This document shows, one piece after another, positions 42,059 through 63,296 of a stretch of DNA of 64,000 nucleotides. The notes below the pieces were generated by a model. The model saw only the letters and a program-made list of their open reading frames with translations. It was not told where the DNA came from and ran no database searches. Numbering within the stretch: the first letter of the stretch is position 1; each line of letters starts with the position of its first letter. Origin of the DNA: a virus. Taxonomy: Duplodnaviria; Caudoviricetes. Made by a program: the position numbers and the translations under genes. Where the stretch lies: IMG/VR virus record IMGVR_UViG_3300031994_004484. One strand, 5' to 3'.

Positions 42059-42211
42059 GTGAAACTTAGAAAAATACGTTATGTAGCGGATACGTGTCCG
42101 TTACAAAGAAGAAATTGCAACACTTGCAAATACAACAACGGATTTGAAAACGACAAGTCTTATTGTTATTATAAAAGTAAAAAGAAAAAAAAGAAAGGAG
42201 GCGAGGAATGA
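42059..42211 (+). CDS. Small Cys4 protein ending GGEE (50 aa, not in ORF track)
   Basis: GTG start; C.....C..C...C; stop overlaps the next ATG. Confidence 0.5.
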   Translation: MKLRKIRYVADTCPLQRRNCNTCKYNNGFENDKSYCYYKSKKKKKKGGEE

Positions 42212-42351
42212 CAAACGAAGAAAAACAACTCTTATTATCATTATTAAAAAAGGCAGATGAGGATGGATTGTTACTTGTTTATGATAATGAATATACACGT
42301 AATGTAATCTGGATATATCTTGATAATGAAATTTACATAAAAATAGAATAA
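42208..42351 (+). CDS. Small protein with a family-A N-terminus (47 aa, not in ORF track)
   Basis: MTNEEKQLLL start. Confidence 0.55.
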   Translation: MTNEEKQLLLSLLKKADEDGLLLVYDNEYTRNVIWIYLDNEIYIKIE

Positions 42352-42354
42352 GTT

Positions 42355-42714
42355 ATGACAACAGAAGAAAAAGAACTATTGTTAAAGGACCTCTGCGCAA
42401 GACAGCCGTATGGGGTTAAAGTTAAAATAGATGGATATGGTACCCATATATTGAAGTGTATTGATGGTGACACTATTTCAACTGATAGAGGTATTAATTA
42501 TCCATTAAGACTTGTCAAGCCCTATCTTCGGCAAATGCCAGACATACAAGACCCATTGTTGAACGAACTGAATGATTTAATTGCAAACAAAAAATTCTAT
42601 GAGATAACAACTATTTCACAAGATTGGTATAATAAACATCACTTCGACTATCGTGCCTTGATTGAGAAAGGTTTGGCTATCGAAGCACCAGAAGGAATGT
42701 ACAAAAATGTTTAA
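42355..42714 (+). CDS. Family A paralogue (KDLCARLPY...EAPEGMY)
   Basis: N-, mid- and C-terminal motifs shared with 56478, 57246, 57695 and 62135. Confidence 0.85.
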   Translation: MTTEEKELLLKDLCARQPYGVKVKIDGYGTHILKCIDGDTISTDRGINYPLRLVKPYLRQMPDIQDPLLNELNDLIANKKFYEITTISQDWYNKHHFDYRALIEKGLAIEAPEGMYKNV

Positions 42715-42728
42715 TAATTTGATAAGAA

Positions 42729-42920
42729 ATGATACCGAAAGTTGGTGATAAAATAAAATGGTGTCTTGGCCTTAAGGCCGACAAAGAAGAACACTACAAT
42801 GTGGTGACAAAAGTGGAGCCATGCGAATACCCTTATTGGTTCACAACATATTGGCATATATGGTTGGACAACGGCGGATGGATAAGAGAACAAGACGTGT
42901 TGGAAATCATCAGAAATTAA
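42729..42920 (+). CDS. Hypothetical SH3-like small protein
   Basis: PKVGDKIKW start. Confidence 0.55.
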   Translation: MIPKVGDKIKWCLGLKADKEEHYNVVTKVEPCEYPYWFTTYWHIWLDNGGWIREQDVLEIIRN

Positions 42921-42939
42921 AACAAAAATGTAAATAACA

Positions 42940-43200
42940 ATGACAAAAGAAGCAATGATTAAAGGTTGGATTGCGGTTGACAAAGACTCAACAGGCAGAA
43001 GGAGAGTGAGTTTCTTTCCAACCAAACCTGTAAGGGATTTATTGGCGGAGCCCCATTATTGGGCGGCAACACTCCCGTATTATGAATCAATCCGATTGGA
43101 TTCAAGGCTATTCAAAGGTATTGAGTGGGAAGACGAGCCTGTCGAAGCAGAAGTAACTATAAAAATAAACAACGTTGCAAAAAAATACAAGGGAAAATAG
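42940..43200 (+). CDS. Hypothetical protein (GWIAVDKD...WEDEPVE family) with a captured C-terminus
   Basis: Last 12 aa duplicated from the GH73 gene. Confidence 0.7.
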   Translation: MTKEAMIKGWIAVDKDSTGRRRVSFFPTKPVRDLLAEPHYWAATLPYYESIRLDSRLFKGIEWEDEPVEAEVTIKINNVAKKYKGK

Positions 43201-43208
43201 TGTGTTTG
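43162..43208 (+). repeat. 47-bp direct repeat, copy 2
   Basis: Matches 41980-42026. Confidence 0.85.
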
Positions 43209-43238
43209 TGAAAGAGGATTGTGGAACAAAGGTTTGTA

Positions 43239-43303
43239 TTAACAATTTTTAGCAAAAAAGGTATGTGATAGTATTGATCTTTTTAATATATTTGGCTTGT
43301 TAA
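43239..43303 (+). promoter_or_regulatory. 65-bp promoter cassette copy
   Basis: TTAAC-AATTT-TTAGC, TATATTTG at +48, GTTAA at +60. Confidence 0.75.
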
Positions 43304-43317
43304 AAAACAATAATTAA

Positions 43318-43776
43318 GTGTCTATGCAAGTTTTTGTACCATATGTGAATCCATTTAATGTCGCCTGTTGTCTTGACAAGAGGCGTTTGAACAAGCAGAT
43401 TATAGAATGCAGGCAGATTCTGAAGTCTATTGCGAATCCGGACGGCCCATGGGGGCATCATCCAATAGTTGCTATGTGGAAGGGATATGCTTTTTGGTTG
43501 TCCTTTTATATGAAAGTGTTGGAGCTGTATCGTGATGGTGATGTGGATAGAGCCCGTTTGTTGGGTAATGAATGTGCTATGCCTTGGAATAAACCCGAGT
43601 TTCTTACAAGAGGTTTTTGCATTCAGCACAGGCGCAGGCTGTATACAAAGTCCCCTGAAATGTACGCTAAGTTTGCCAAATACGGCTATTCTGAAGAAAA
43701 TTGGTATTATATCGCAGGTTGTTTTGTAAAATATAAAAACGGTAAATTAATTGAAAAACTTAAAGCGCTTTATTGA
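43318..43776 (+). CDS. Pyrimidine-dimer DNA glycosylase-like protein
   Basis: MQVF.P, LD..RL.KQ..E..QIL, HP...MW.G, HR..L..K. Confidence 0.75.
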   Translation: MSMQVFVPYVNPFNVACCLDKRRLNKQIIECRQILKSIANPDGPWGHHPIVAMWKGYAFWLSFYMKVLELYRDGDVDRARLLGNECAMPWNKPEFLTRGFCIQHRRRLYTKSPEMYAKFAKYGYSEENWYYIAGCFVKYKNGKLIEKLKALY

Positions 43777-43777
43777 T

Positions 43778-44170: not shown

Positions 44171-44235
44171 TCTTATGATTAACATAGAATGTTTGATGGT
44201 TGGTGATTATTTCATTGCCGAAAGATATTACGGAC

Positions 44236-44450
44236 AGATACTCAAAGTGTTTGAAGTGAACTACCCTCGACCGAAGTCGCAGGCATCACACATGCCCGCA
44301 ACACCTAATCGCACGGCTTCCTGCTTCCTACCCTCAAACGGGTCTTGCGACAGGAGGCACCCAAAGGTTTCCCTCAGGGTGGAGCTCCCGTCTCCACAGG
44401 CTTGTATTCCCGCCGTTCCGGCGGTATTGTATCTCGTGAGGAACTCGTCC
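44236..44450 (-). ncRNA. Predicted omegaRNA (scaffold overlaps the tnpB 3' end; guide from flank 44255-44236); 5' boundary approximate
   Basis: Position inferred from established IS200/IS605 TnpB organisation. Confidence 0.55.
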
Positions 44451-45753
44451 CTCAGATTAATCGCGGCGTTGACATCCCTGTCGTGGTGGCACCCGCACTC
44501 GGGGCATGTCCACTCCCTGTCGGACAGCGACAGCCCGTCGTTCTTCCACCCGCATCCGCTGCACAGCTTCGAGCTCGGGAAAAACCGGTCCACATAATGT
44601 ATGTAGCAGTCGTACTTCCCCGCCTCGTGCTCCAACCACTGCCTGAACTCCCCGAACGCCAAGTCGTTCACGCTCTTGCCCAACCTGAGACCCCTTGACA
44701 TGCTCTGCAAGTCAATGTCCTCCAACACAACCACATCGTACTTCCTCACGTAGTGTAATGCGGTCTGTATGCAGAACTCCCTACGCCTGTTGGCCACCCT
44801 CTCGCAGGCCTTGGCGTACCTCAGCCTTGCCTTCTCGCGGTTTTTGGAAGGCCTTCTGATTTCAACCTCCTTTCCGCTTGAGTCCGTGCGGTATTCGCCT
44901 GTGCCGGTGAATGCCTTCCTCGACAGCTTGCGTTGGAGCCTTGAAAGGTGTCTCTCGTTCCTTCGGTACTCCCTGACGTACTTGGGTTTCGTCACGTCAG
45001 ACGGGTCCGATGATACGGCGAAGCCTTCCATGGACATGTCCAAACCCACAACGGACGGGTTTGACACCCTCGGTACCCTGTTGAACATGGGCCTTTCAGG
45101 TTGCCCAGTCTCCACTGTGAGTGAGATGTGGTATTTGCCCGACCTGCTCCTTGACACGTTGGCGGACCTTATTGTACCGACAAACGGTCTGTGGAGGACT
45201 ATCCTCACCATGCCGACTTTAGGCAGTTTTATGCGCTTCCCGTCTGCGGATAGCTTTATGCAGCCGCCGTTGTTGAACGTGGTGTAGGTGTCCTTGGCGG
45301 CACCCTTCTTCTTGAACTTGGGGAACCCCGCCTTGCGGCCCTTGCGTTCGCCCTTGCGGGACTTGAAGAATGCTTCGAGCGCGTCGTCGAAATGGCGTCT
45401 TGCCTGTTGGAGTGCGACGGAGTCGCATTCCTTGAGGAAGGCGTATTCGGGCATGTTCCTGAAGTGGGTGTAGTCGGGTTGTTTGCCGATAGGTATGCCG
45501 TCGGACTTGTATGCGTTGTACGCGTCGATGTACCATGCGAGGCAGAGGTTGTATACCTTGCGTGCGCATCCGAAGAACCGGTTTAATGTTTCGGTTTGGT
45601 TCTTGGTTGGGTAGAGCCTGTATTTGTATGCGCGTATGGACATCTGAGCGTTATAATTATATATAATATAATTATAAATATTATAAAAAGCAAATTTTAA
45701 AAACAGGCGACTTTCATCCCACGACTGAAGTCGCGGGTTTTCCCGCCGCTTTA
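44256..45753 (-). mobile_element. Non-autonomous IS200/IS605-family (IS1341-like) TnpB element
   Basis: Related subterminal hairpins (CGAC.GAAGTCG core) at 44264-44283 and 45718-45737; TTTAT 5' of the left end; right end ...GTTCAC; no TSD; visibly GC-richer than flanks. Confidence 0.9.
44261..45643 (-). CDS. tnpB: RNA-guided endonuclease TnpB
   Basis: AYKYRLYP HTH, RuvC D (GLDM), E (LEDI), Zn ribbon, D (DRDVNAAINL). Confidence 0.95.
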   Translation of the reverse strand: MSIRAYKYRLYPTKNQTETLNRFFGCARKVYNLCLAWYIDAYNAYKSDGIPIGKQPDYTHFRNMPEYAFLKECDSVALQQARRHFDDALEAFFKSRKGERKGRKAGFPKFKKKGAAKDTYTTFNNGGCIKLSADGKRIKLPKVGMVRIVLHRPFVGTIRSANVSRSRSGKYHISLTVETGQPERPMFNRVPRVSNPSVVGLDMSMEGFAVSSDPSDVTKPKYVREYRRNERHLSRLQRKLSRKAFTGTGEYRTDSSGKEVEIRRPSKNREKARLRYAKACERVANRRREFCIQTALHYVRKYDVVVLEDIDLQSMSRGLRLGKSVNDLAFGEFRQWLEHEAGKYDCYIHYVDRFFPSSKLCSGCGWKNDGLSLSDREWTCPECGCHHDRDVNAAINLRDEFLTRYNTAGTAGIQACGDGSSTLRETFGCLLSQDPFEGRKQEAVRLGVAGMCDACDFGRG

Positions 45754-46055
45754 ATAAAGTCTTACGTAGCTATAAGGGCTGAAACCTTGAATGGCGGGTT
45801 GGTTGGCCCGTTCTTCGATTCTGACATTAAACCGGTTCAGTTGACGGACGAGATTCTCGAAAAGAACTTTCCCGAACCTGATATTCTTGCATGGCGGCCT
45901 ACAGGCAAAGACGCTTCCTATCATATAGAGATAACCAAAGACGATAAAGAGGACGAACTCGGTTCAATGGAAGTCGTTATAAGGTTGAAATATGTTCATG
46001 AATTGCAGCATCTTTTGAGGATATGCGGAATTGAAAAGAAAATTGTTTTATAGAA

Positions 46056-46120
46056 TTAACATTTTTTAATAAAAAATCGGATACATTTTATTAGATTATT
46101 TCATATATTGGTCTTGTTAA
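46056..46120 (+). promoter_or_regulatory. 65-bp promoter cassette copy
   Basis: TTAAC-ATTTT-TTAAT, TATATTGG at +48, GTTAA at +60. Confidence 0.75.
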
Positions 46121-46138
46121 ATTGAAAAAACAAGAATT

Positions 46139-46639: not shown

Positions 46640-46861
46640 ATGGGAAACAAGGAAAAAGCAAAAGAGATAGCTGAAAAATCGCAAGACTATTTTTACCATG
46701 ATGAAAAGGAGTGTGGGCTTGCCTGTGCTTTGAGAATGGCAAAATGGAAAGACGAGCAATTCAATGAAGAAAAGAAAGATTTGCTTGAGCTTGTCAATAT
46801 GTTAGAGTGCAACGAGAAAAACCAAACAATTATAGAAGATTTAAAAGCATTATTACAATAG
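46640..46861 (+). CDS. Family C-related small protein
   Basis: EKAKEIA...MAKWKDEQ. Confidence 0.7.
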   Translation: MGNKEKAKEIAEKSQDYFYHDEKECGLACALRMAKWKDEQFNEEKKDLLELVNMLECNEKNQTIIEDLKALLQ

Positions 46862-47204: not shown

Positions 47205-47817
47205 ATTTGTAAGAGTACATAAAAAAGGAACCGACGATTATGGTATATGGTATTTCAAACCAATGTCATTTGACGACCTTAAGTTGCACTGGACCACAGT
47301 GTGCGGAAGCGAGATACGAAACCATATTAATGAAAGGTTCGAGAAATCCGTTCTTGTGGAACGTGAAGGGGAAGAGCCGTATATAAGCACCCCTCACCCG
47401 ACAACGCAGTTCGGTATTGCTGTTGAGGCCTATCTTGACGTGGTCAACGGAAACTACGCGCTTGGAATGCTTGAGCTTGAGAACATAGCCTGGCAGTCCA
47501 GGAAGGAGTTGTTTGAAAAAGGCAGGGACATTTACCTTGCAGAAGGTATGACCGTGTACGAGATAGACGAAAGATTCTTTGAAATCGCTGAAGAGGTTGA
47601 ACATGAGCGATTTGTTTATCCATCCAAAAAAGATTGGTCTATCGATGATGTAAGATACATGCAATGGAATATGCTTGGAAATGTCGGCACACATTGGTAC
47701 GCCAAAATCGGAAAAAGGGATGTGTATGACAGTAATGGAAACATGAAATGGGACACGAAAGAAGAGGCTGAAAATGCCGCCGAATGGTTCTTAACCAATA
47801 AAATCAGACAAAAATGA
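47197..47817 (+). CDS. Hypothetical protein
   Basis: 206-aa ORF overlapping neighbours. Confidence 0.7.
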   Translation: MYKFVRVHKKGTDDYGIWYFKPMSFDDLKLHWTTVCGSEIRNHINERFEKSVLVEREGEEPYISTPHPTTQFGIAVEAYLDVVNGNYALGMLELENIAWQSRKELFEKGRDIYLAEGMTVYEIDERFFEIAEEVEHERFVYPSKKDWSIDDVRYMQWNMLGNVGTHWYAKIGKRDVYDSNGNMKWDTKEEAENAAEWFLTNKIRQK

Positions 47818-49037
47818 AAGACGAAGATATAGATTTCGGCAAATATTACGAACTTGATTGCAACAGGAAATATTTTTCGATTGATTTGCAAAGAGAAATC
47901 CAGTTCGATAGTTGTTTGGCTGTGAAACCTACGCATAAATCCGACAGTGCTTGCGGTACTTTTAAAGGCGGAGGCTGTTTGTGGTTTGGAACACTTGTAA
48001 TTGTTGACGTAAACGGGTTCCACGATTACGACACAAACAACGAAATAGAATTCGTGGCGGAAGATGTGATTTCAGAATATGAATTCAAAGACAGAGTTAT
48101 GCCTTTGTTTGTGCTAATAACGCCAGAGAAAGCGAGACTTGATTTTTTGAACGAACAGCTCGGAACAAGTTATGAATCACTTGATGATGTTGATTGGAAC
48201 TACATTTCAACATATCAGAAACTATCCGAGGACTTCATCCGTGAGTTCAAGGATAATGTTAATTGGTGTTGGATTTCGTCATACCAAAAATTATCCGATG
48301 ACTTCATCCGAGAGTTCAAGGATGATGTGAGTTGGTATTGGATTACAAGATGCCAGAAACTTTCCGAGGATTTCATCCGTGAGTTCAAGGATATGGTTGT
48401 CTGGGACCACATTTCGCAATGCCAGAAATTATCGGAGAGCTTCATCCGAGAGTTCAGCGACAGAGTTGACTGGAACTACATTTCAACATATCAGAAACTA
48501 TCCGAGAACTTCATCCGTGAGTTCAAGCATAAGGTTAATTGGTCTGATATTTCAATATATCAGAAACTATCCGAGGACTTCATCCGTGAGTTCAAGGGTG
48601 ATGTGAGTTGGTATTTGATTTCGTCATACCAAAAATTATCCGATGACTTCATACGTGAGTTCAAGGACAATCTTCACTTGTATTCAATAATGGACAACTG
48701 GGCATACAAGGATGCTGAGTTTTTGAAGGCACAAGTGGAGAAAACTGGCTTGTACGAATGCCACGACGATTACTTCATTGCGTATAAGGGAATTCGTTCG
48801 GACAGGTACTCAAAGTATAACTTCCAATACCAATACCTTCCTGGGGAGACATACGAATCATTCTGCGACTGTTCGTCAAGCGAAAACTCATTCGGCTTGT
48901 CGGTGTGGACAGAAGGAAAGGCGAAAGAATACAGTGACGAACTTGTCGTGAAGGTGAAGGTGAGATACGAGGACGTGGGCCGTGTCGTGCATAACGGAGG
49001 GAAGGTAAGGTGCAGGAAAATTACAATATTGGATTAA
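47814..49037 (+). CDS. Tryptophan-repeat solenoid protein
   Basis: 7 x 23-aa V.W..IS..QKLSEDFIREF.D; C-terminal IAYKG...Y..GETY domain. Confidence 0.8.
   Translation: MKDEDIDFGKYYELDCNRKYFSIDLQREIQFDSCLAVKPTHKSDSACGTFKGGGCLWFGTLVIVDVNGFHDYDTNNEIEFVAEDVISEYEFKDRVMPLFVLITPEKARLDFLNEQLGTSYESLDDVDWNYISTYQKLSEDFIREFKDNVNWCWISSYQKLSDDFIREFKDDVSWYWITRCQKLSEDFIREFKDMVVWDHISQCQKLSESFIREFSDRVDWNYISTYQKLSENFIREFKHKVNWSDISIYQKLSEDFIREFKGDVSWYLISSYQKLSDDFIREFKDNLHLYSIMDNWAYKDAEFLKAQVEKTGLYECHDDYFIAYKGIRSDRYSKYNFQYQYLPGETYESFCDCSSSENSFGLSVWTEGKAKEYSDELVVKVKVRYEDVGRVVHNGGKVRCRKITILD
48189..48671 (+). repeat. 7 tandem 69-bp coding repeats
   Basis: Unit core TTCATCCGTGAGTTCAAG at an exact 69-bp period. Confidence 0.95.
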
Positions 49038-49345: not shown

Positions 49346-49558
49346 ATGACAAACAAAGAAAAAACACTTGAATTGAAAAAACAGTATTACGACATGGTGC
49401 AATCAATAGGCGGCCATGCTATGGACCATGTTCTGCTTGATATGGCGTCATGGAAGGACGATGAGTTCATGAAGGTTTTAGTTGAAACAGACTACAGTGT
49501 TTTTGCCGACCGTTACGAATATATAAAAAATATCCAAAACAAGCTGAATATTGAATAA
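49346..49558 (+). CDS. Family C-related small protein
   Basis: MTNKEK...MASWKDDEF. Confidence 0.65.
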   Translation: MTNKEKTLELKKQYYDMVQSIGGHAMDHVLLDMASWKDDEFMKVLVETDYSVFADRYEYIKNIQNKLNIE

Positions 49559-49561
49559 TAT

Positions 49562-49978
49562 ATGATTACAGAAGATTACGTAAGTTTTGAGATTGCGAAA
49601 CTCCTTAAAGAGAAGGGGTTTGATGTAAAATGTGAATATTGTTATGCGGAGTTTAGTAAGGACGATATTAAAGTTATCGGCTTGTCGCCTGCTAAATTCG
49701 CACAATCTCTTAAAGAAGATAGATACCCGTATGTGACTCTTCAAACGGCTATGAAGTGGCTGAGGGAAGTACACGGCATCCACATAAATGTATTTCGTTA
49801 TCCTGCGGCATTTTTAGACGATAATAATGAACAACACAAACCATGGTGGTTTCAATACACACTCCTTAAACCAATTAAGGAAATTGACATTGACAGTCAT
49901 ATGATGAATGGTGAATTTGAATCGGCAGAAGAAGCTATGGGTTACGCAATAAAGTATTGTTTAGAAAATTTGATTTGA
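49562..49978 (+). CDS. Family B paralogue 1
   Basis: EDYVSFEIAKLLKEKGFD...TLQ.AMKWLRE...AIKYCLENLI. Confidence 0.85.
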   Translation: MITEDYVSFEIAKLLKEKGFDVKCEYCYAEFSKDDIKVIGLSPAKFAQSLKEDRYPYVTLQTAMKWLREVHGIHINVFRYPAAFLDDNNEQHKPWWFQYTLLKPIKEIDIDSHMMNGEFESAEEAMGYAIKYCLENLI

Positions 49979-49980
49979 TT

Positions 49981-50364
49981 ATGATTAAAGAAGATTACGT
50001 TAATTTTGAAACAGCAAAGCTCTTGAAAGAAAAAGGATTTGATGAAGAATGTAGTTGTTTTTACAACAATATTGATTATGGTACACCTGGATTGGAGGTA
50101 GACGGACAGCTTTATTATAAAAATTCAGCACTTGATGATTTAGAATATGCCGCTCCAACTCTTCAAATGGCCATGAAGTGGCTGAGAGAAAAGTATAACA
50201 TTCATATTGAACCTAGATACTTCCCGATGCCAAACATTTACAGGTATGTAATTATATATACACCAATCACGATTGAAAATATTAATTCACATCCGCAATA
50301 TTTCAATTCTTATGAAGAAGCTTGTGAAGCAGCAATTAAGTGTTGTTTAGAAATTTTAATTTGA
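49981..50364 (+). CDS. Family B paralogue 2
   Basis: Same motifs; start reassigned by paralogy. Confidence 0.85.
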   Translation: MIKEDYVNFETAKLLKEKGFDEECSCFYNNIDYGTPGLEVDGQLYYKNSALDDLEYAAPTLQMAMKWLREKYNIHIEPRYFPMPNIYRYVIIYTPITIENINSHPQYFNSYEEACEAAIKCCLEILI

Positions 50365-50366
50365 TT

Positions 50367-50750
50367 ATGATTGAAGAAGACTACGTAAATTTTGAGACGG
50401 CGAAACTTTTGAAAGAAAAGGGTTTTGACGAACCCGTTATGCACCATTTCACGCCAGATGGCGCACAAAGAAAATTCCAACAAGCGTTTTACAGAGACGA
50501 TGTTGCCCAACCAACTTTGCAGATGGCGTTGAAATGGATTAGGGAACAAGGTTTCTATATCAATGTTGACATTGATGTCGATTACGATGAAGATGAACGA
50601 GGCACAAAATGGTATCATAAACCAGCATGGGATTGGGCTGTTTTTCGGATTGACGAAAGAAAACAGATGTCTGATGACGGAGCGTTGTATGCAACCTACG
50701 AACAAGCTGCTGAAGCGGCAATTAAATGGTGTCTGGAAAATTTATTTTAA
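50367..50750 (+). CDS. Family B paralogue 3
   Basis: Same motifs; start reassigned by paralogy. Confidence 0.85.
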   Translation: MIEEDYVNFETAKLLKEKGFDEPVMHHFTPDGAQRKFQQAFYRDDVAQPTLQMALKWIREQGFYINVDIDVDYDEDERGTKWYHKPAWDWAVFRIDERKQMSDDGALYATYEQAAEAAIKWCLENLF

Positions 50751-50755
50751 GTATT

Positions 50756-51151
50756 ATGATTAAAGAAGATTACGTCAGTTTTGAAATAGCGAAGCTTTTG
50801 AAAGAAAAGGGCTTTGATGAAGATATTAATTTATGGTATGATGAAACTGGTGAAATGTTTTTCGAGCTTAAATACAATATAGGTCGTAATTGGAGAGTGA
50901 GAAATAACCAAAAGGTATATGAATGTCCAACTCTTCATATGGCAATGAAGTGGCTGCGTGATGTGCATGGTGTTCATTTAGCTCTATTTCCATACGATGT
51001 TGAAAACGGTGCCGTAAGGTATTTGCCTGAAATATTGATTATATCAAATGGAACTCAACAACTAGAATATGTCGAGGGGCTTAATATATGTGAATCTTAC
51101 GAACAAGCTGCTGAAGCGGCGATTAAATATTGTCTGGAAAACCTTATATAA
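50756..51151 (+). CDS. Family B paralogue 4
   Basis: Same motifs; start reassigned by paralogy. Confidence 0.85.
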   Translation: MIKEDYVSFEIAKLLKEKGFDEDINLWYDETGEMFFELKYNIGRNWRVRNNQKVYECPTLHMAMKWLRDVHGVHLALFPYDVENGAVRYLPEILIISNGTQQLEYVEGLNICESYEQAAEAAIKYCLENLI

Positions 51152-51154: not shown

Positions 51155-51289
51155 ATGGCAAAAGCAGAATATGAAGTGGCAAAACAATGGTGTCATATCA
51201 GGTGTTTGAAACCGATGGAAGAGTGCAAGAACTGTTCAATACTTAAACATTATACAGAAGTTTTTGGAAAAACGGAGAAAAAACAGTAA
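51155..51289 (+). CDS. Small Cys4 protein (44 aa, not in ORF track)
   Basis: MAKAEYEVAKQWCHIRCLKPMEECKNCSIL..., 3 bp after the previous stop. Confidence 0.5.
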   Translation: MAKAEYEVAKQWCHIRCLKPMEECKNCSILKHYTEVFGKTEKKQ

Positions 51290-51320: not shown

Positions 51321-51902
51321 ATGAAGTTTACAGTAGAAGATATTAAGGAAATTAACTCTGAACTTTTGAACATTAAAGTTCATTGCAACAAAGGGATTGT
51401 TTTGGACCCGTTTTTGATAAACAATTTAATTGGTCTAAACAGAATAAAAGAATATGATTTTGAAATATATTTACCCAAATACGGTATAAACCTGCAAAGA
51501 CCTTACGTGTGGAAAGACTACCAACAATCCGAATACATAATTTCCATTTTGCAAGAAAGACCTTTGGAAAACGTAATTGTTATCCAACATGAAACAACTG
51601 AAGGAAAAATAACAATGCAAATTTTGGATGGAAAACAACGCTTGACCACAATACAAAAATTTTTGCTTGGAGAAATACCAGTTACAATAAATAACAAAAA
51701 AGTATGGTGGGATGATTTTGACAAAGATGCAAAACGACATTTCAAATCACGTCTTTTAAGTATCACGGCTGTTGTTTACTACACATACGATGATGACAAC
51801 CTAACGGATGATGACAAAATACGCTTGTTTAACTTTTACAATTTTTCTGGAACACCACAAACCGAAGAACACAAAAACACCCTAAAAAAACTGTTAAAAT
51901 AA
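51321..51902 (+). CDS. DUF262 (GmrS/ParB-like) domain protein
   Basis: LQRPYVW, ILDGKQRLTTI, F...N. Confidence 0.85.
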   Translation: MKFTVEDIKEINSELLNIKVHCNKGIVLDPFLINNLIGLNRIKEYDFEIYLPKYGINLQRPYVWKDYQQSEYIISILQERPLENVIVIQHETTEGKITMQILDGKQRLTTIQKFLLGEIPVTINNKKVWWDDFDKDAKRHFKSRLLSITAVVYYTYDDDNLTDDDKIRLFNFYNFSGTPQTEEHKNTLKKLLK

Positions 51903-53610: not shown

Positions 53611-53958
53611 GCATATCGGCAGGAACTACGACATTGCTGTTTCCACTGTTCATTCAAGTTACACAAGCAAGATGTGCCCGATATGCGGGTGCATAGATGA
53701 CGGGAACAGAACAACGCAGGAGGATTTCCGCTGTGTTGAATGCGGTCACGAGGACAACGCAGACCACAACGCGGCGGTCAACATAAGAAACAGAGTCGGC
53801 ACAACCGTGTTGTGCAAAAGGCTCTTAAAACAACTTGGCAACGGTGCATACGAACCAAGGAAGATGTCGAAAGACAAGGTGAAGGATGTGCTGTTGTCGT
53901 ATCGTGCAAGTCTTGAAAAAGATGGGGAATCTAAATTTTATTAGATTTTGTTGTACGG
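53600..53958 (+). mobile_element. Truncated IS607-like element: TnpB C-terminal fragment plus right end
   Basis: TSKMCPICG...CVECG..DNADHNAAVNI; ends TTTTATTAGATTTT...TACGG like 60551-60573. Confidence 0.8.
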
Positions 53959-55052: not shown

Positions 55053-55134
55053 GTTATTATGTGTTTGTGGGCAGTCATACCGGTGAAATCGAAGGCATGA
55101 TTAGTCCTTGCAAGTAGTTTTACTAAAACTTTTT

Positions 55135-55199
55135 TTAAGAAAAATTAACATAATGGTGTTGCTGAGGTAACACCTTTTTTCGTATATTTGGGGTGTTAA
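55135..55199 (+). promoter_or_regulatory. 65-bp promoter cassette copy with internal hairpin
   Basis: TTAAG-AAAAA-TTAAC, GGTGTTGC/GTAACACC stem, TATATTTG at +48, GTTAA at +60. Confidence 0.75.
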
Positions 55200-55216
55200 A
55201 TTAAATGATAAAGGTG

Positions 55217-55477
55217 ATGACAAGGAAAGAAGAAATTAAAAAAGGCGCATTTGACGCTTTTACAAATGAAGGATGGGAGCGTCAGAGAGTGGCATTTGTT
55301 CAAGGCGCATTGTGGGCTGATGAATATCCAAGGAAAGGTCTTGTGGATATTGAAAAGGTTTGCAAAGTGTTAAACAGTATGTTGGCCGAAGTAACATATT
55401 TTGATAAAGGTTCAATAACAGAACATTATGACAAACTTGAATTTATTGAAGCTTTCAGAAAAGAAATGAAGGAATAG
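55217..55477 (+). CDS. Family C paralogue
   Basis: MTRKEEI...GA.WAD..PRKGLVDIEKVC...FRK.M. Confidence 0.8.
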   Translation: MTRKEEIKKGAFDAFTNEGWERQRVAFVQGALWADEYPRKGLVDIEKVCKVLNSMLAEVTYFDKGSITEHYDKLEFIEAFRKEMKE

Positions 55478-55481
55478 CATT

Positions 55482-55775
55482 ATGGGAAGAATAGATGAAT
55501 GGTATAACGCGGCAGAAGAAGAATATCCTCCACAAATGGGCTATTGTGATATGGGGGATATTGATTACAACTGCGGGTATCGAGAGGCGTTTGTCAAAGG
55601 TGTTGAACGGGGAGAGAGGACGATGATTGAAAGGACGTGCAAATGGTTAGAAGAAAACATGAGTGTAGTCAATGCAAACGCTGTAAACTACGGGGATATA
55701 AGTTTCGCCGCATCGAAAATTATAGGTGGAAAGGAAAACTTTGTTAAAGAGTTCAAAAAAGCGATGGAGGGATGA
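55482..55775 (+). CDS. Family C paralogue
   Basis: MIERTCKWL...FKKAME. Confidence 0.75.
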   Translation: MGRIDEWYNAAEEEYPPQMGYCDMGDIDYNCGYREAFVKGVERGERTMIERTCKWLEENMSVVNANAVNYGDISFAASKIIGGKENFVKEFKKAMEG

Positions 55776-55778
55776 AAT

Positions 55779-56033
55779 ATGACAAGAAAAGAAGAAATAA
55801 ATGAGCAATGTTTTGTCAATGGCTTTAATGACCACGACAAAGAGTTATTCACAATCGGCGCGGAGTGGGCTGATTCACGTCCAAGGAAAGGCCTTGTTGA
55901 CATTGAAAAGGTTTGTATGTGGTTGAAAGAAATGATGCAAGGACATCTTGTATTAGAAGTATTAACTGGCGAACACTATGAAACTGATTTAATCAAAGAT
56001 TTCAAAAAAGCAATGGAAGGAGGCGAGGAATGA
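55779..56033 (+). CDS. Family C paralogue
   Basis: MTRKEEI...GAEWAD.RPRKGLVDIEKVC...FKKAMEGGEE. Confidence 0.8.
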   Translation: MTRKEEINEQCFVNGFNDHDKELFTIGAEWADSRPRKGLVDIEKVCMWLKEMMQGHLVLEVLTGEHYETDLIKDFKKAMEGGEE

Positions 56034-56284
56034 CAAACAACGAGCAAAAAGCAAAGAAAATAGTTGATAGCATATTTTCAACAGGATTAAACACTTATAA
56101 AACATTTTACGAAATGGCGTATAATTCTGCAATGGAAATGGCCGAATGGAAAGAACAGCACATAATTGAAAAGGCTTGCAAGTGGCTGAAAAATAACTGT
56201 ACATATACACACCCGAGAACAGGCAAAGAAACATGCGTTGTCAACTTGAATGCTTTCAAAAAAGCGATGGGGGAACAACAATGA
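56030..56284 (+). CDS. Family C paralogue
   Basis: KAK.I...MAEWKEQ..IEKACKWL...FKKAM. Confidence 0.8.
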   Translation: MTNNEQKAKKIVDSIFSTGLNTYKTFYEMAYNSAMEMAEWKEQHIIEKACKWLKNNCTYTHPRTGKETCVVNLNAFKKAMGEQQ

Positions 56285-56481
56285 CAAGACAGGAATATTA
56301 CAACATAAGGGAAGAGTTCGCGACATTGTCAATGGTGAAGAAATTCCTACAATGCACCAAGGACATGCTGGAGACATACCCTTTCTTCAAAGAATGGAAC
56401 ATGGCTGAGATAAAAGAGTTTCTCGACAAAAGGGAGACGGAGATGGAATTAAATGTGGAACATAAATTAGGTGTGATATGA
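56281..56481 (+). CDS. Hypothetical protein (start reassigned to 56281)
   Basis: ATGA overlap with the previous stop. Confidence 0.6.
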   Translation: MTRQEYYNIREEFATLSMVKKFLQCTKDMLETYPFFKEWNMAEIKEFLDKRETEMELNVEHKLGVI

Positions 56482-56969
56482 TGACAGAACGAGAAAAACA
56501 ATTATTGTTAAAAGACCTCTGCTCAAGGTTGCCTTATGATGTCAATGCGAAAGGCAACTATGATGTATTTGACGACAATGGCAATGTAGTTAAAATGGAG
56601 GCTACAGGAACAGTCGAGTGGGTTTCCAAAGAGTATGCGACTATAGGCTTCGAAGGTATATATTATTCCATAAACTGTAGAATTGATACCGTTAAACCAT
56701 ACCTCCGCCCAATATCATGTATGACGGAGGAAGAAGTTGACACTTTATTCAATGTTCTTAAAATTGACGAGAAACGCGGTGATTGGTTAAAGGTGAACGA
56801 CATAGGGATTATTCGACTTTTCACTGAAGCAGGAAAAGACTTTTATGAAATTGCCGCAGCGTTTGATTATCTTAACTCAATCCGTGTAGATTATCGTGGT
56901 TTGATTGAAAAGGGCCTTGCCTTGGAAGCACCTGAAGGAATGTATAAAATTGTGGCAACACGTGTGTAA
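56478..56969 (+). CDS. Family A paralogue
   Basis: KDLCSRLPY, KPYLRP, DYRGLIEKGLALEAPEGMY. Confidence 0.85.
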   Translation: MMTEREKQLLLKDLCSRLPYDVNAKGNYDVFDDNGNVVKMEATGTVEWVSKEYATIGFEGIYYSINCRIDTVKPYLRPISCMTEEEVDTLFNVLKIDEKRGDWLKVNDIGIIRLFTEAGKDFYEIAAAFDYLNSIRVDYRGLIEKGLALEAPEGMYKIVATRV

Positions 56970-57006: not shown

Positions 57007-57246
57007 ATGACTTGGGTTTTTATTTTAATTTATGTAATTTCATTTAGTGTATCATATACTTCAGCAATAGTTGAGGAATGGAAAAACCTCCATACAATAG
57101 GAGATTTTCTGTGGCCACATGGAAGTAGCTTTGAAAATTTAATAATGATTTATCTACCATTCGGGAACACTATTGTTGCGGTTATAATAATATCTGAAAT
57201 ATTATACAAGTACTTAAAAAAATTTTTAAACATCAGAATTAAATAA
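57007..57246 (+). CDS. Small two-TM membrane protein
   Basis: Two hydrophobic segments. Confidence 0.6.
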   Translation: MTWVFILIYVISFSVSYTSAIVEEWKNLHTIGDFLWPHGSSFENLIMIYLPFGNTIVAVIIISEILYKYLKKFLNIRIK

Positions 57247-57692
57247 TGGACAATATGAAAAACGAAGAAAAAGCTTTGTTGTTAAAAGACCTTTGTGCGA
57301 GGTTGCCTTATAAAGTAAAATGTTATTGTATGTTGTGGGATAAAGATGCGGATGGTTGCCCATTAAATACAAAACACGCAGGTATTGGCGAGTTATGTAC
57401 AATTTATACAGACGAAGGTAGTTCTTTTCCTGTTGAGTTTGTGGATGACCTTGCCCGATATGGAATATATGACATCAAACCATATCTCCGTCCTATGTCA
57501 AGTATGACGGAAGAAGAAAAAGATCATTATGATTCAATCACATACACTGAAGATGAGACACATTTCAAAGGAGTTTGGTGTAAAACTGTTGTTGATTGGT
57601 TAAACAAGAAAATGTTTGACTATCGTGGCTTAATTAAAAAAGGCCTTGCTCTTGAAGCACCAGAAGGAATGTATAACACTAAAGATGAATAG
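57246..57692 (+). CDS. Family A paralogue
   Basis: Same motifs. Confidence 0.85.
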   Translation: MDNMKNEEKALLLKDLCARLPYKVKCYCMLWDKDADGCPLNTKHAGIGELCTIYTDEGSSFPVEFVDDLARYGIYDIKPYLRPMSSMTEEEKDHYDSITYTEDETHFKGVWCKTVVDWLNKKMFDYRGLIKKGLALEAPEGMYNTKDE

Positions 57693-57694: not shown

Positions 57695-58096
57695 ATGACA
57701 CAGGAAGAAAAACAAATTTTAATCAAGGTTCTTTGCGCGGGATTGCCTTATGAGGAGAAAGTAGAAGTCTGTATAAAAGACAAAGATATAAAATCTATCG
57801 ATTGTGTAAAATATAATACGATCGGCACTTATATTGGGCTATTAGATGAGGAGAAATTTTCAGTCAAGCCATATCTCCGTCCGATGTCAAGCATGACGGA
57901 GAAGGAAAGGATATCTTTTTTTAAAGCCACCAATTTTCATATTGCATTAAAGCCAAACGGCTTCTTTCCACTTAATAATCAGTGTAGTGGTGAACACGTT
58001 ATTGAGGCATTAGATTGGTTTAATAAACACATGTTCGATTACAGGGGTTTGATTGAAAAAGGGCTTGCATTGGAAGCGCCCGAAGGTATGTACTAA
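57695..58096 (+). CDS. Family A paralogue
   Basis: Same motifs. Confidence 0.85.
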   Translation: MTQEEKQILIKVLCAGLPYEEKVEVCIKDKDIKSIDCVKYNTIGTYIGLLDEEKFSVKPYLRPMSSMTEKERISFFKATNFHIALKPNGFFPLNNQCSGEHVIEALDWFNKHMFDYRGLIEKGLALEAPEGMY

Positions 58097-58321: not shown

Positions 58322-58570
58322 ATGACAAGAAAAGAAGAAATACATAAAGAAGCAATGTCAATGTCTTTTGATTATCCTTATCTTTGCAATGAAGAAGACA
58401 ATAATTCAGAATATGTTAAAAAGTTGGAAGATATTGCTAATTGGGCCGATGAAACAATTTTGGACAAAGCATCAGAATGGCTGAAAAAGAATCTTCAAAA
58501 CTATATTGAAAATGACCGGACAAGCGAAAAAGATTTTATTGAGCAATTCAGAAAATCAATGGAGGAATAA
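58322..58570 (+). CDS. Family C paralogue
   Basis: MTRKEEI...WADET.LDKA.EWL...FRK.MEE. Confidence 0.8.
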   Translation: MTRKEEIHKEAMSMSFDYPYLCNEEDNNSEYVKKLEDIANWADETILDKASEWLKKNLQNYIENDRTSEKDFIEQFRKSMEE

Positions 58571-58573
58571 AGT

Positions 58574-58819
58574 ATGACAAGAAAAGAAGAATGTTACGCA
58601 GAGGCGTTGAGGTATGTTGAAAATAATCATAGCAAAGCCGGCAACGACTTTCAGAACGCTATGAACATAGCAGTGCTGAAGGCATACATGGCAGGAGCAC
58701 AATGGGCGGACAAGACAATGATTGAGAAGAGTAGAAATTGGATTGAGGATAATATAACGAGCTATTTTGACCGTTCAGATTATATGGGTCGAGAGTTCAT
58801 AGAAGCAATGGAGGAATAG
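58574..58819 (+). CDS. Family C paralogue
   Basis: MTRKEE...GAQWADKTMIEK...AMEE. Confidence 0.8.
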   Translation: MTRKEECYAEALRYVENNHSKAGNDFQNAMNIAVLKAYMAGAQWADKTMIEKSRNWIEDNITSYFDRSDYMGREFIEAMEE

Positions 58820-59284: not shown

Positions 59285-60559
59285 ATGGAACATTCTGTTA
59301 TTGATATGTTGCGAGGAATCAAAGTGAGGTTATACCCGAACAAGGAACAGCAGACAAGACTTGACAAGGTACTTGGATGCTACCGCTTTGTGTATAACAA
59401 GACCCTTGAACTCAAGCGCAATGCCTATGACAAGTATAAGACCAATCTTAAACTAACTGACATCTCCAAGTGGTTTCACGGAACATTATTGAAAGACGAG
59501 AACTATGCTTGGTTGCAAGAACAGAATACCAAAGTAATGAAGCAATCAATACGTCAGATGCTTGACGCTTATTCAAAGTTCTTCAAGCAGCACAACGGAT
59601 TCCCGAAGTTCAAATCCAAGAAAGACAAGCAGTCGGCACTGTTTCCGTCAGAAGCGATTTCCAAACGCAACACATTCAATGAAAGAAAAATAACACTGAC
59701 GCAAGACCTCAAGGACATCAAGTTTAGATGTTCGGACTTGTATTACGAGAGACTTCAAGACTACAAAGATTGCATAAGGAGTGCTACCGTTTCGAGAACC
59801 AAGAGTGGCAACTACTTCCTTTCAATCCTTGTTGACATACCGCAGGATGAACTTGTAAAGTTCAAGCATACCAATCAATGTGTTGGTATAGACCTCGGTG
59901 TGAAGGATTTTGTGATTACAAGTGACGGTGAGGTATTTGAGAACAAGCACTTTTTCAAGAAGCAGGAAAAGAAAGTCAAGCGATTGCAGAAGCAACTGTC
60001 AAGGAAAGTCAAAGGTTCGCACAACCGAGAGAAACAACGTGTCAGAATCGCAAAGGCGTTTGAACGGTTGACCAATCAGAAAGACGATTACATTCATTCG
60101 GTTGTGAATACACTCTTGTCTTTGTATGACTTGGTTTGTATGGAGGACTTGAACGTGGGAGGAATGTTGAAAAACCATAAGTTAGCAAAAGCGATTCAAG
60201 AGGTTGGTTTCTACAAGTTCAAGCAAATCTTGCTTGACAAGGCAAGTGTCAACGGCAAGCAGGTTGTCTTGGTTGACAGATTCTATCCAAGCAGCAAGAC
60301 CTGCCACAAGTGCGGTTACATCAAGAATGACTTGACTTTATCAGACCGTGAATGGGTTTGTCCAATTTGTGGTGAGCATCTTGAAAGGGATGTAAATGCT
60401 GCAATCAACATCTTGGATGAAGGTTTGAGAATAATAGGTGTCCGTAGCACCGAATTTACGCTTGCGGATTGCCCAACTATGGATGACCGTTTGAAAGACC
60501 TAAAAAGTAGTGGCAGGTTGAAACAAGAAAGAAGAACTAATAATTCCAGTTTTTATTAG
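59285..60559 (+). CDS. tnpB: RNA-guided endonuclease TnpB
   Basis: KVRLYP HTH, GIDLGVK, MEDLNV, CxxC..CxxC, RDVNAAINI. Confidence 0.95.
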   Translation: MEHSVIDMLRGIKVRLYPNKEQQTRLDKVLGCYRFVYNKTLELKRNAYDKYKTNLKLTDISKWFHGTLLKDENYAWLQEQNTKVMKQSIRQMLDAYSKFFKQHNGFPKFKSKKDKQSALFPSEAISKRNTFNERKITLTQDLKDIKFRCSDLYYERLQDYKDCIRSATVSRTKSGNYFLSILVDIPQDELVKFKHTNQCVGIDLGVKDFVITSDGEVFENKHFFKKQEKKVKRLQKQLSRKVKGSHNREKQRVRIAKAFERLTNQKDDYIHSVVNTLLSLYDLVCMEDLNVGGMLKNHKLAKAIQEVGFYKFKQILLDKASVNGKQVVLVDRFYPSSKTCHKCGYIKNDLTLSDREWVCPICGEHLERDVNAAINILDEGLRIIGVRSTEFTLADCPTMDDRLKDLKSSGRLKQERRTNNSSFY

Positions 60560-60695: not shown

Positions 60696-60887
60696 ATGAC
60701 ACTTGAAGAATATAAAAAACAAATATTCAAATATGGCACTGATGCGAACGGAAATGTAGTGGAAATTACAATTGGTGATGAATTTGACACTTTGCCGAGA
60801 AGAGATAGAAGATACATCCAGCGTTGCTTGAACAAAGGTAAAGTCCCGAATTTTGAGGATGTTTTGTTTTCGCCAGACGAGGATTAA
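60696..60887 (+). CDS. Hypothetical protein
   Basis: 63-aa ORF. Confidence 0.6.
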   Translation: MTLEEYKKQIFKYGTDANGNVVEITIGDEFDTLPRRDRRYIQRCLNKGKVPNFEDVLFSPDED

Positions 60888-60925
60888 GTTATCACTAAAA
60901 AATAATAAAAAAATAATTAAAAATC

Positions 60926-61312
60926 ATGTATATAGCATTATTAATAATATCATTAATTGCAGGGGTTGGACTCATTGTTCTGTGCTTTTGTTTTGACGTA
61001 GGCCGAAATTGTGGATTGTGTGGAATTGTGTTTGTTCTTTATTTCATATATGCCACGGTTATATTATGCAGTCACCAAACAAAGGAAGAAGATTTCGCAA
61101 AATACGAAAAAGCGAAAACGGAGTATGAAATAATCAAAAACAAATGTGTTGACATCAGCACATCAACGCTGATTGATTATATTGATGATATTGAAAAAGC
61201 AAACAATTTGGTTGAAAAGTCAAAAAAATGGCACGACAATTGGTATTTGAAGGATTTTTATTACAAAGAAATTGGCGAATTGCCTGTTCTTGAACTAAAA
61301 GAATTATTTTAA
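60926..61312 (+). CDS. Membrane protein (two N-terminal TM segments)
   Basis: Hydrophobic N-terminal half. Confidence 0.7.
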   Translation: MYIALLIISLIAGVGLIVLCFCFDVGRNCGLCGIVFVLYFIYATVILCSHQTKEEDFAKYEKAKTEYEIIKNKCVDISTSTLIDYIDDIEKANNLVEKSKKWHDNWYLKDFYYKEIGELPVLELKELF

Positions 61313-61316
61313 TAGC

Positions 61317-61499
61317 ATGAAACCTGCGATAGTGTTCACAACGGACAGCCTGTACGGGGATTTCAAGAAAGGCGACAAAGGAGTGGTTGACGGTTACGTC
61401 AGAGGAGGAGACGACACCCCGTGCGCGGTGATAATAAAAGAGGACGGGCGTTTTGTCATAGCCAACCTTTACGAATTCAAACTATCTTTACCGAATTAA
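61317..61499 (+). CDS. Small SH3-like protein
   Basis: FKKGDKG.VDGYVRG. Confidence 0.6.
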   Translation: MKPAIVFTTDSLYGDFKKGDKGVVDGYVRGGDDTPCAVIIKEDGRFVIANLYEFKLSLPN

Positions 61500-61531
61500 A
61501 AAGTGGGAGAGTTACTTAAAATTTTTGAACA

Positions 61532-61807
61532 ATGACCGACATAGAAAAAGCAAATGATTTAGCGCAGTATTATTCAGAAGAGAGTGACTATAAAAGGACT
61601 GTAGGTTACGATTGTGCTATTGAAATGGCTGACTGGAAAGAGCAGCAGATGATTGACAAGGCGTGCGAGTGGTTAGGTAAAAACATAGGCAATTACCAAA
61701 ATTGGGAATACAACGAGTTTCATCAATGTGTTGAATATGATGGTAGTTTTGATATTGAAAAAATGATTAGTGACTTTAGGAAAGCAATGAAAGGAGGTGA
61801 AGAATGA
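61532..61807 (+). CDS. Family C paralogue
   Basis: EKA...MADWKEQQMIDKACEWL...FRKAMKGGEE. Confidence 0.8.
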   Translation: MTDIEKANDLAQYYSEESDYKRTVGYDCAIEMADWKEQQMIDKACEWLGKNIGNYQNWEYNEFHQCVEYDGSFDIEKMISDFRKAMKGGEE

Positions 61808-62124
61808 CAGATTTAGAAAAGCTTTCGAAGTTTTTTGATGACGGAAAAATAACGGAAAACAATTTGAGATTTGGCAGAAAGATGCCATTTGGAAAACACA
61901 AAGGTAAGTACATTTACCATCTTTTAGTAAAACATTGGAGATATATGGATTGGGTTGTCAAAAATACTCAATTTGACTTAAACGATATTGAAGTTTGGTG
62001 GAAAAACAAAATAGATTTGTTTATAGAGATGCAAAAAGCCGACAATCTTATTCATTGTTTATGCAGGCAATTAAATATTGGTGGTATTGATAATATTGAA
62101 AACCCACATTTTATAATTGAATAA
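61804..62124 (+). CDS. DUF3820-like (MPFGKHKG) protein
   Basis: MPFGKHKG...YMDW. Confidence 0.65.
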   Translation: MTDLEKLSKFFDDGKITENNLRFGRKMPFGKHKGKYIYHLLVKHWRYMDWVVKNTQFDLNDIEVWWKNKIDLFIEMQKADNLIHCLCRQLNIGGIDNIENPHFIIE

Positions 62125-62134
62125 AATTAACTTT

Positions 62135-62545
62135 ATGACAAGAGAAGAAAAACAACTATTGTTAAAAGACCTCTGCGCGAGGCTGCCGTATGGAGTAAAA
62201 ACTAAAATAACAGAGGAAGGTGTATTGTCTTACGATAGTGAAATAGGTATTATTGTTGGCAAAGAACATATTGATAATGAAATTTTCATCGTCAAATGCA
62301 AGAATGACAGTTGGTGCTTAACTGCTATAAGTGAGTTTGTGCCATACCTCCGACCGATGCAAAGCATGACCGAAGATGAGGAAACGACCAAATGCGCCTT
62401 TTTGGACAACATCGAGGGAGGTGTGGAAGATTCAATACCGAAATACGTTGATTGGCTTAACGCCAGTCATTTCGATTATCATGGTCTTATTGGAAAAGGT
62501 CTTGCGCTTGAGGCCCCAGAAGGAATGTATGCTTTCATTGGCTGA
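62135..62545 (+). CDS. Family A paralogue (start reassigned)
   Basis: MTREEKQLLLKDLCARLPY...EAPEGMY. Confidence 0.85.
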   Translation: MTREEKQLLLKDLCARLPYGVKTKITEEGVLSYDSEIGIIVGKEHIDNEIFIVKCKNDSWCLTAISEFVPYLRPMQSMTEDEETTKCAFLDNIEGGVEDSIPKYVDWLNASHFDYHGLIGKGLALEAPEGMYAFIG

Positions 62546-62586
62546 TTTTTTTGTATATTATACACACAAGAACAAACATAACGAAC

Positions 62587-63033
62587 ATGTGCTTATATTC
62601 AGAGAAAAAAATCGAAATAACGACCGCCGAAACTGACATTCAAGTTTACAAAGTTCTGTACCGACCAGACAGGAAAACCCTTTACCCTCCGTTATACAAC
62701 GACGGAAGACCGTACAAGAAAGGCGAGGTTTTGCACACCGTTCTTGACGAGATGGAGTGCTTTTTCCCACAAAATCCGATATCGGATATAGCCGATGAAG
62801 GAAGCTATACACCTGGCGTATACGTATTCGACGATGAATACAGAACACGCAGGGGGTTCTACTCCGAAACCACCAGGAAGGCGGCAAGAGAGTTCAAGGA
62901 CAAGTGTTGCTATCCTCACAACAAGTGCAAGATATACAGATGCACAATCCCAAAGGGTGCTAACTACATCACCGACGGGGAAACATATGTCAGCGACACC
63001 CTGAAAGTCGTCAGGCGATGTATTATACAATAA
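62587..63033 (+). CDS. Hypothetical protein (MCL...AE.DI.VYK...C.IPKG..Y family; start reassigned)
   Basis: Motif pattern; A-rich start. Confidence 0.7.
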   Translation: MCLYSEKKIEITTAETDIQVYKVLYRPDRKTLYPPLYNDGRPYKKGEVLHTVLDEMECFFPQNPISDIADEGSYTPGVYVFDDEYRTRRGFYSETTRKAAREFKDKCCYPHNKCKIYRCTIPKGANYITDGETYVSDTLKVVRRCIIQ

Positions 63034-63112
63034 AAGGCTGGGTGGTGGCAAGATAAAAAACAAATGGGTGTATACACTTGAAGACACGAAAATCAGTTAA
63101 AAATCATATAAA

Positions 63113-63296
63113 ATGTCAGGGTGGGTAGCAGTAGAACAAAGCGGTAAAGAAGTTATTTTCAGATTGTTCCAATGTTCATGGCACTTTCATGGTTGAGAGG
63201 ATAAAGAAGACCGGTGAGCCCCATTATGTGCATGAGTTGCAGCATTTGTTCAGGGAATGTAATATTGAATTCGGTTTTCAATTTCCGGAAGGTTAA
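63113..63296 (+). pseudogene. Chimeric gene fragments
   Basis: MSGWVAVEQSG (like 42940) followed, in another frame, by YVHELQHLFRECNIE (family E C-terminus). Confidence 0.5.

Follow-up and report, generated by a model that had tools for sequence, protein, structure and literature searches.

Small-gene families of the span

We analyzed a window of 64,000 nucleotides, corresponding to bases 69408-133407 of the 135,854-base virus record IMGVR_UViG_3300031994_004484 (Duplodnaviria; Caudoviricetes), in which arrays of small genes occupy a 21-kb accessory region (positions 42,208 to 63,296 of the window, hereafter the span) of a large rumen phage. We assigned these genes to families A to E and found that, in families A, B and C, conserved blocks separate two variable segments that are combined almost at random across related phages. 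CheckV estimated the completeness of the record at 37%, so that the whole phage genome is probably of jumbo size, about 370 kb. Complete genomes of relatives (355 and 413 kb) carry the same gene families. Family A was also present on contigs of 286-410 kb deposited as metagenome-assembled genomes (MAGs) from the rumen of cattle, buffalo, yak and deer, which indicates that the habitat of the phages carrying these arrays is the ruminant gut.

The families were detected by an all-against-all BLASTP comparison of the open reading frames (ORFs) of the plus strand, followed by MAFFT alignments. This procedure recovered the several families of small proteins with conserved blocks and unalignable cores that had been described at these places by an earlier reading made from the letters alone (hereafter the sequence-only reading). 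The alignments revealed that families A, B and C each present a constant-variable-constant-variable-constant layout, with N-terminal, central and C-terminal blocks. The two variable segments (var1 and var2, also called cassettes below) could not be aligned between the paralogues of the window, which are 35-46% identical overall. At the DNA level, the constant blocks span 60-100 nt and are 61-88% identical, and the longest exact matches between window paralogues measure 8-23 nt. Members of the three families are soluble and mostly acidic (isoelectric points of 4.4-5.9). We found no near-identical tandem copies of the kind left by recent tandem amplification (a genomic accordion): the highest DNA identity between variable segments of one locus was 0.59.

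Family A comprises five genes in the span, with 36-41% mutual identity, as well as one half-gene, and a sixth copy lies just beyond the end of the window. The five genes, all on the plus strand like the other family members described here, are located at 42355-42714 (119 amino acids, aa), 56478-56969 (163 aa), 57246-57692 (148 aa), 57695-58096 (133 aa) and 62135-62545 (136 aa). The half-gene is a 47-aa ORF at 42208-42351, which the sequence-only reading had interpreted as a family-A start on an unrelated body. We observed instead that the gene at 62135 has the same start and some of the same first variable segment (BLASTP to 62117-62545, E = 1e-4, and alignment), and the ORF is a probable truncated N-terminal half of a family-A gene.

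The four genes of family B (49562-49978, 49984-50364, 50367-50750 and 50753-51151) form a head-to-tail array at 49562-51151 with gaps of 2-5 bp; they are 35-42% identical and match phrog_12005, a family of unknown function (E = 5e-14 across residues 13-137 of the ORF 50726-51151). Family C is represented by seven clear and two weak genes: a run of four at 55217-56284 (55217-55477, 55482-55775, 55779-56033 and 56030-56284), a pair at 58322-58819 (58322-58570 and 58574-58819), a single gene at 61532-61807, a weak member at 46640-46861 (hidden Markov model E = 4e-5, and alignment) and perhaps another at 49346-49558. Family D is represented in the span by one gene with internal repeats (52114-53610), with two repeat units of ~151 aa and constant linkers (repeat families D17-D19), and BLASTP relates it to 27757-28719. 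Family E was found, as previously described, as one gene and a fragment: the C-terminal part of a gene into which a TnpB element is inserted (45787-46053) and a frameshifted piece carrying the family-E C-terminal motif (63113-63296), both identified by BLASTP and from their sequence.

These families are large. Profile searches returned at least 8000 protein matches for family A, at least 8000 for family B and 1524 for family C, and an exhaustive search with family A yielded 8,718 clusters at 50% identity, with 1,183 of them below E = 1e-30. The number of family-A copies ranges from 6 to 46 per complete genome: the 413-kb genome contains 46 genes in two clusters and the 355-kb genome contains six, together with seven family-B genes. 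One locus (L007) harbors 24 family-A genes inside 20 kb, and many loci have genes of families A, B and C in interleaved order. Comparison to a phage collection yielded no match for a DNA search of the span or for a tblastn search with family A, and only distant matches for family B (Cellulophaga phage phi18:3 and the crAss-like cr108_1). Fused family-A proteins of double length (264-388 aa, with two matched stretches) were also observed (P0001, P0002, P0361-P0364 and P0366); such proteins would be expected if neighbours lost the stop codon between them or if two units were joined by recombination. The A/B/C arrays are accompanied by another multicopy family of ~120 aa, for which loci L007-L094 contain 26 members.

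In a structural model of family B (predicted local distance difference test score, pLDDT, of 91), the three constant blocks form helices and var2 forms a beta-sheet. The C-terminal half of this model would adopt an alpha-beta-beta-beta-alpha arrangement resembling that of double-stranded RNA-binding domains (dsRBDs), at VIA-align Z of 5-6.5 and with Foldseek E-values of 0.13 or worse, a likeness below the level that would exclude a common arrangement. The C-terminal block of family A and the N-terminal block of family B present a weak likeness (probability 60% over 22 columns). We considered and rejected an origin of family A by internal duplication of one module (hhalign probability of 9%).

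Re-pairing of the cassettes

To compare the two cassettes, each protein was cut into its constant and variable segments, and var1 and var2 were compared separately for each pair of homologues. A segment was considered shared at 55% identity or more (60% for family C), and it was counted as the only shared segment when the other one was below 30%. The typed homologues are the best ~120 per family, out of about ten thousand each for families A, B, C and D. Among 96 family-A sequences, 74 pairs shared var1 only and 30 shared var2 only, relative to 13 pairs sharing both (correlation of 0.15). The corresponding numbers were 179, 523 and 42 in family B (88 sequences; correlation of 0.02) and 124, 107 and 17 in family C (114 sequences; correlation of 0.07). 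Nearly all the family-A pairs sharing both segments are the same or near-identical sequences, and those of family B mostly belong to one near-identical cluster. The similarities of the two segments are thus incongruent in all three families, as the sequence-only reading had anticipated for exchanged segments. The number of cassette-type combinations matched that of shuffled cassettes and was well above the minimum set by full linkage: 84 combinations were observed in family A (87 when shuffled and 69 if fully linked), and 74 in family B (70 and 48, respectively).

Individual homologues illustrate this pattern at the protein level. P0004 combines the var1 of the gene at 57695 with the var2 of the gene at 57246, and the latter cassette was found with four or more other var1 cassettes (P0004, P0049, L015 and L016). 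P0009 combines the var1 of 42355 with the var2 of 56478. The var1 of 57695 is 92-95% identical to those of P0023, P0028 and P0031, whose var2 segments are unrelated to its own. In family C, P0248 unites the N-terminal cassette of 56030 with the C-terminal cassette of 61532, and P0243 and P0253 are a reciprocal pair of recombinants between 55217 and 55779 that change over within the central block. Within one locus, none of the 390 pairs of copies shared a cassette; about 1.5 such pairs would be expected, and the absence of shared cassettes within a genome is therefore no departure from expectation.

We then examined the junctions at the DNA level in a set of 89 loci (698 kb), in which 175 distinct family-A genes were segmented. 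Pairs of these genes sharing var1 only (22) or var2 only (19) again outnumbered those sharing both (7), and the 150-nt flanks of cassette-sharing pairs were usually at background identity. Two comparisons of closely related phages locate the exchanges. The phages of loci L011 and L014 are ~98% identical, but L011 contains two adjacent family-A genes where L014 contains one: this single gene consists of the body of the first L011 gene and the tail of the second, with the switch at a 16-nt exact match in the C-terminal block. The difference is a deletion or duplication of one unit by crossover within the C-terminal block. A giant ORF resembling family D also differs between these two loci (948 and 1232 aa), by about two repeat units. 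Between loci L088 and L094, identity is 97-99% in the upstream DNA, in the N-terminal half of the gene and in the downstream DNA, but a patch of ~190 nt that takes in the central block, var2 and the beginning of the C-terminal one has been replaced. On the left, the tract shared by these loci ends inside the conserved block of the upstream family-C gene.

Across all loci, we recorded where tracts of at least 90% identity and at least 100 nt end internally. The density of such ends reached 0.83 per kb in constant blocks (35 ends), 0.29 per kb in variable segments (14 ends) and 0.12 per kb in other DNA (56 ends); as BLAST ends can be off by a few bases, the value for variable segments is a maximum. 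Breakpoints are therefore clustered in the constant blocks, in line with the sequence-only reading, at a density about seven times higher than in other DNA.

We further analyzed selection on the blocks and cassettes, using the frequency of the same codon at aligned identical residues. Among the paralogues of the window, this frequency was 0.53-0.57, relative to 0.39-0.44 expected from codon usage. Among 1500 random pairs of family-A genes from different loci, it was 0.51 in the N-terminal block, 0.44 in the central block and 0.45 in the C-terminal block (0.39-0.45 expected), and the largest excess adjoins the start codon. Over-conserved synonymous sites had been proposed as a check of the homology-arm idea of the sequence-only reading; these sites proved nearly saturated (0.44-0.51 vs 0.39-0.45), so the blocks are ancient and maintained by selection at the protein level. 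Their DNA homology is a by-product of protein conservation and no selection for recombination is needed. For genes sharing one cassette, the synonymous divergence (dS) was 0.54 within the cassette and 1.27 in the adjoining blocks. The ratio of nonsynonymous to synonymous divergence (dN/dS) was 0.16 within shared cassettes, which indicates that the cassettes are not hypervariable: they are stable functional types rather than fast-mutating loops.

Explanations for the cassette combinations

We consider it probable that these loci are multigene arrays of two-cassette small proteins that are re-paired by ordinary recombination in the constant blocks. According to this explanation, each cassette would exist as many discrete types, each of them kept by purifying selection, and selection on the protein would keep the constant blocks and thereby retain short exact DNA matches of ~14-23 nt. 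Homology-dependent recombination at these matches would link first and second cassettes of any type in frame, through unequal crossing-over between array neighbours, patch conversion or exchange between phages. The same recombination would add or remove whole genes or repeat units and, across the population, the two cassettes would end up almost unlinked. Regarding the enzymes that would carry out this recombination, the same record encodes a weak candidate for a UvsX-like phage recombinase: a 403-aa protein with a Walker A motif (G000:C1:23351-24562, locus L095) that matches phrog_97 (UvsX-like) at E = 6e-10 and scores 21.8 bits against RecA, below the cut-off. The sequence-only reading had viewed the constant blocks as homology arms. 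Exchange does occur at the blocks, based on the junctions and the incongruence of segments, but the blocks are not over-conserved at the DNA level and the exact matches between paralogues are only 8-23 nt long.

Several alternatives must be weighed against re-pairing by recombination. The copies could be ordinary old paralogues that diverged in place, their loops drifting with no exchange of segments. Such a history fits the 36-46% identity of the window copies, the near saturation of synonymous sites and the lack of any cassette common to two copies of one locus (0/390 pairs), but it does not predict cassette incongruence over hundreds of pairs in three families, reciprocal recombinants, or recombinant junctions separating phages that are 98-99% identical. 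Because the segment similarities are incongruent, we set this explanation aside as very unlikely. It is also unlikely, although to a lesser degree, that the arrays represent a selected diversification system in which the blocks are kept at the nucleotide level as recombination sites and each phage maintains a non-redundant library of binders against host defences. The same architecture is indeed found in at least three families without detectable sequence relationship that are interleaved in arrays, cassettes are associated almost randomly, all the copies of one genome are distinct and the blocks present a small excess of identical codons. This excess is however only 0.03-0.10 and is greatest at the start codon, where codon choice is biased anyway, and the absence of cassette sharing within loci fits expectation (~1.5 expected, 0 seen). 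Moreover, neither a dedicated enzyme nor a reverse transcriptase was found in the ~136-kb record, and no link to a defence system was found. The small codon excess is the one positive support for a recombination-selected system. A diversity-generating retroelement was considered and rejected: no RVT_1 match was found in the 135,854 bases (~37% of the genome), no template/variable repeat pair was found, the repeats of the span being the constant blocks (61-88% identical), and the variable segments fall into discrete types that cannot be aligned with one another and are under purifying selection.

It is finally conceivable that assemblers joined paralogues or strains across the conserved blocks. 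Many homologues are located on contigs of 0.5-3 kb, and part of the sequence collection (Logan assemblies) was assembled with short k-mers, which would favor such artefacts. Mosaic pairs are however also found on contigs of 5-413 kb from different samples, and key examples come from JGI and ENA assemblies. In addition, the shared cassettes are 76-99% rather than 100% identical, with substitutions on both sides of the junctions, and most of the exact matches in the blocks do not reach the length of the usual final k-mers. We regard assembly artefacts as a most improbable source of the overall pattern. Nevertheless, some points weigh against re-pairing by recombination as we describe it. All the comparison sequences are short-read metagenome assemblies, some of them built with small k, and individual short contigs could be chimeras assembled across conserved blocks. 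The profile used to rank the homologues was derived from the window paralogues and the database was clustered at 90% identity, both of which shape the pair counts. A control family of similar size was sought in the same loci, where almost no other family of useful size is present. The fold matches are also weak: the best VIA-align hit of the family-B model reached a Z of only 6.5 (root-mean-square deviation of 2.5 across 64 residues) and numerous dsRBD chains lay at Z of 5-6, and the family-A model (pLDDT of 74) yielded no fold match (Foldseek E of at least 0.5 in PDB and at least 0.027 in BFVD; best VIA-align Z of 5.3).

Re-pairing of cassettes by recombination can be compared with known systems. 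In cassette-based antigenic variation (Anaplasma Msp2, Neisseria pilin and Borrelia VlsE), conserved flanks guide segmental recombination into mosaics. Those systems have a single expression site alongside silent donors and operate inside a single cell line, whereas the copies of the window all look like intact expressed genes and mixing is seen across the phage population. The closest designs described are the segments of gp38 adhesins and PeSL shuffling, both from T4-type phages. The gp38 adhesins of T2/T6-type phages contain hypervariable segments between conserved glycine-rich motifs, a design thought to ease the recombination of specificity determinants (Trojet et al. 2011, PMC3157838). 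As in families A, B and C, a single small protein is built of conserved motifs and, between them, variable segments that can be exchanged independently, but the likeness is one of design only: the families of the window are not adhesins or virion genes, no sequence or family match to gp38 was found for them, and they are multicopy (up to 46 per genome) and located in accessory arrays. They also contain two cassettes, relative to four segments in gp38, and the design is shared by several families without detectable relationship. In the hyperplastic regions of T4-type phages, small ORFs are moved between repeated promoter-stem-loop (PeSL) cassettes (Arbiol et al. 2010, PMC2839356). There too, short repeated conserved sequences in accessory regions are the recombination sites at which small genes of unknown function are inserted, deleted or replaced, and the window also contains five repeated intergenic cassettes with a hairpin and promoter-like sequence. 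PeSL shuffling swaps whole ORFs, however, whereas the junctions that we mapped lie inside coding constant blocks and produce in-frame chimeric proteins. Bacillus phage G provides another example of many paralogous small genes in a jumbo phage genome, with a lineage-specific expansion of ~35 zinc-ribbon copies; the consulted part of that source reports neither cassette structure nor re-pairing (Iyer et al. 2021, PMC7824862). What is new here are the families themselves, their scale, the two-cassette design common to several unrelated-looking families and the near-random pairing of the cassettes.

In rumen jumbo phages, thousands of variants of at least three unnamed families account for a visible part of the accessory genome, and their near-random re-pairing offers a concrete picture of protein diversification without a dedicated diversifying enzyme. 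These families also break ordinary orthology and tree methods, which fail because the halves of a gene have different histories. The re-pairing also singles them out as prime candidates for proteins facing variable host targets.

We did not obtain a functional assignment for families A, B, C or D from Pfam, PHROGs or PADLOC. Pfam contained no family for any member of A or B or for the three family-C genes scanned, the PHROG matches of family members were restricted to families of unknown function, and defence-system models did not match them. Profile searches of PDB sequences returned nothing below E = 0.09, and the protein atlas returned unnamed viral clusters only. Two leads from the atlas, DUF6794 (one structural neighbour) and Phage_ABA_S (with a score of 0.75), were dropped, as neither was confirmed by Pfam. 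Nearby genes encode a denV-like glycosylase, a DUF262/GmrSD_N protein and a polynucleotide-kinase-like protein; they fit an accessory, conflict-related region and prove nothing. The DUF262/GmrSD_N protein (193 aa, 51321-51902; Pfam E = 8e-15, PADLOC NsnA E = 6e-12) is located downstream of the family-B array, with only a 44-aa ORF (51155-51289) between them. We tentatively suggest, with less than even confidence, that the family proteins could be binders of variable host targets, with a binding surface that would be formed by the cassettes and a role in phage-host conflict. More doubtfully, rumen jumbo phages may draw on a shared pool of cassettes from which each genome would assemble a non-redundant repertoire of two-cassette binders against host defence or takeover targets. 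If true, this repertoire would be a virus-side, recombination-based counterpart of an immune repertoire, and the blocks would be both scaffold and recombination sites.

Neighbouring elements and related genomes

Besides the small-gene families, the span contains mobile elements. A TnpB gene (IS605-type) is encoded on the minus strand at 44261-45643 and lies in an insert of 51% G+C that interrupts the family-E gene. A second TnpB gene is located on the plus strand at 59285-60559 (Pfam and PHROG matches), and the plus-strand ORF at 53597-53944 is a probable remnant of a TnpB C-terminus (BLASTP to 59285-60559, E = 2e-4). The sequence-only reading had stated that the window is devoid of reverse transcriptases and dedicated recombinases. 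No RVT_1 match was found over the entire record, but the span does carry genes of nucleic-acid enzymes, namely the two TnpB genes and the remnant.

An intergenic cassette of 80-90 nt with a hairpin, a T-run and a promoter-like sequence is present in five copies (41241-41330, 43228-43317, 46045-46138, 55120-55216, on the plus strand, and 63812-63901). Its layout consists of a conserved A/T-rich box, a hairpin that is short and variable, a T-run and a TAnnTTTG-like box; TGTTAAAT follows this last box. From its sequence, this cassette looks like a terminator followed by a promoter that would divide the accessory region into blocks; the TAnnTTTG-like box is of the Bacteroidota promoter type.

Several of the related loci (L098-L100, L103 and L109-L112) are single contigs of 286-410 kb that are filed as bacterial MAGs and contain several family-A genes each. 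Such entries include RUG343 ("Firmicutes"), RUG13941 ("Erysipelotrichaceae"), RGIG8901 ("Bacilli") and RUG12352 ("Bacteroidales"). These contigs are probably jumbo phage genomes binned as bacteria, and some of them may serve as species representatives in GTDB.

Finally, the gene at 47814-49037 encodes a 407-aa protein matching phrog_3532 and contains, at 48120-48736, seven tandem repeats of 69 bp (23 aa) that are 63-86% identical.

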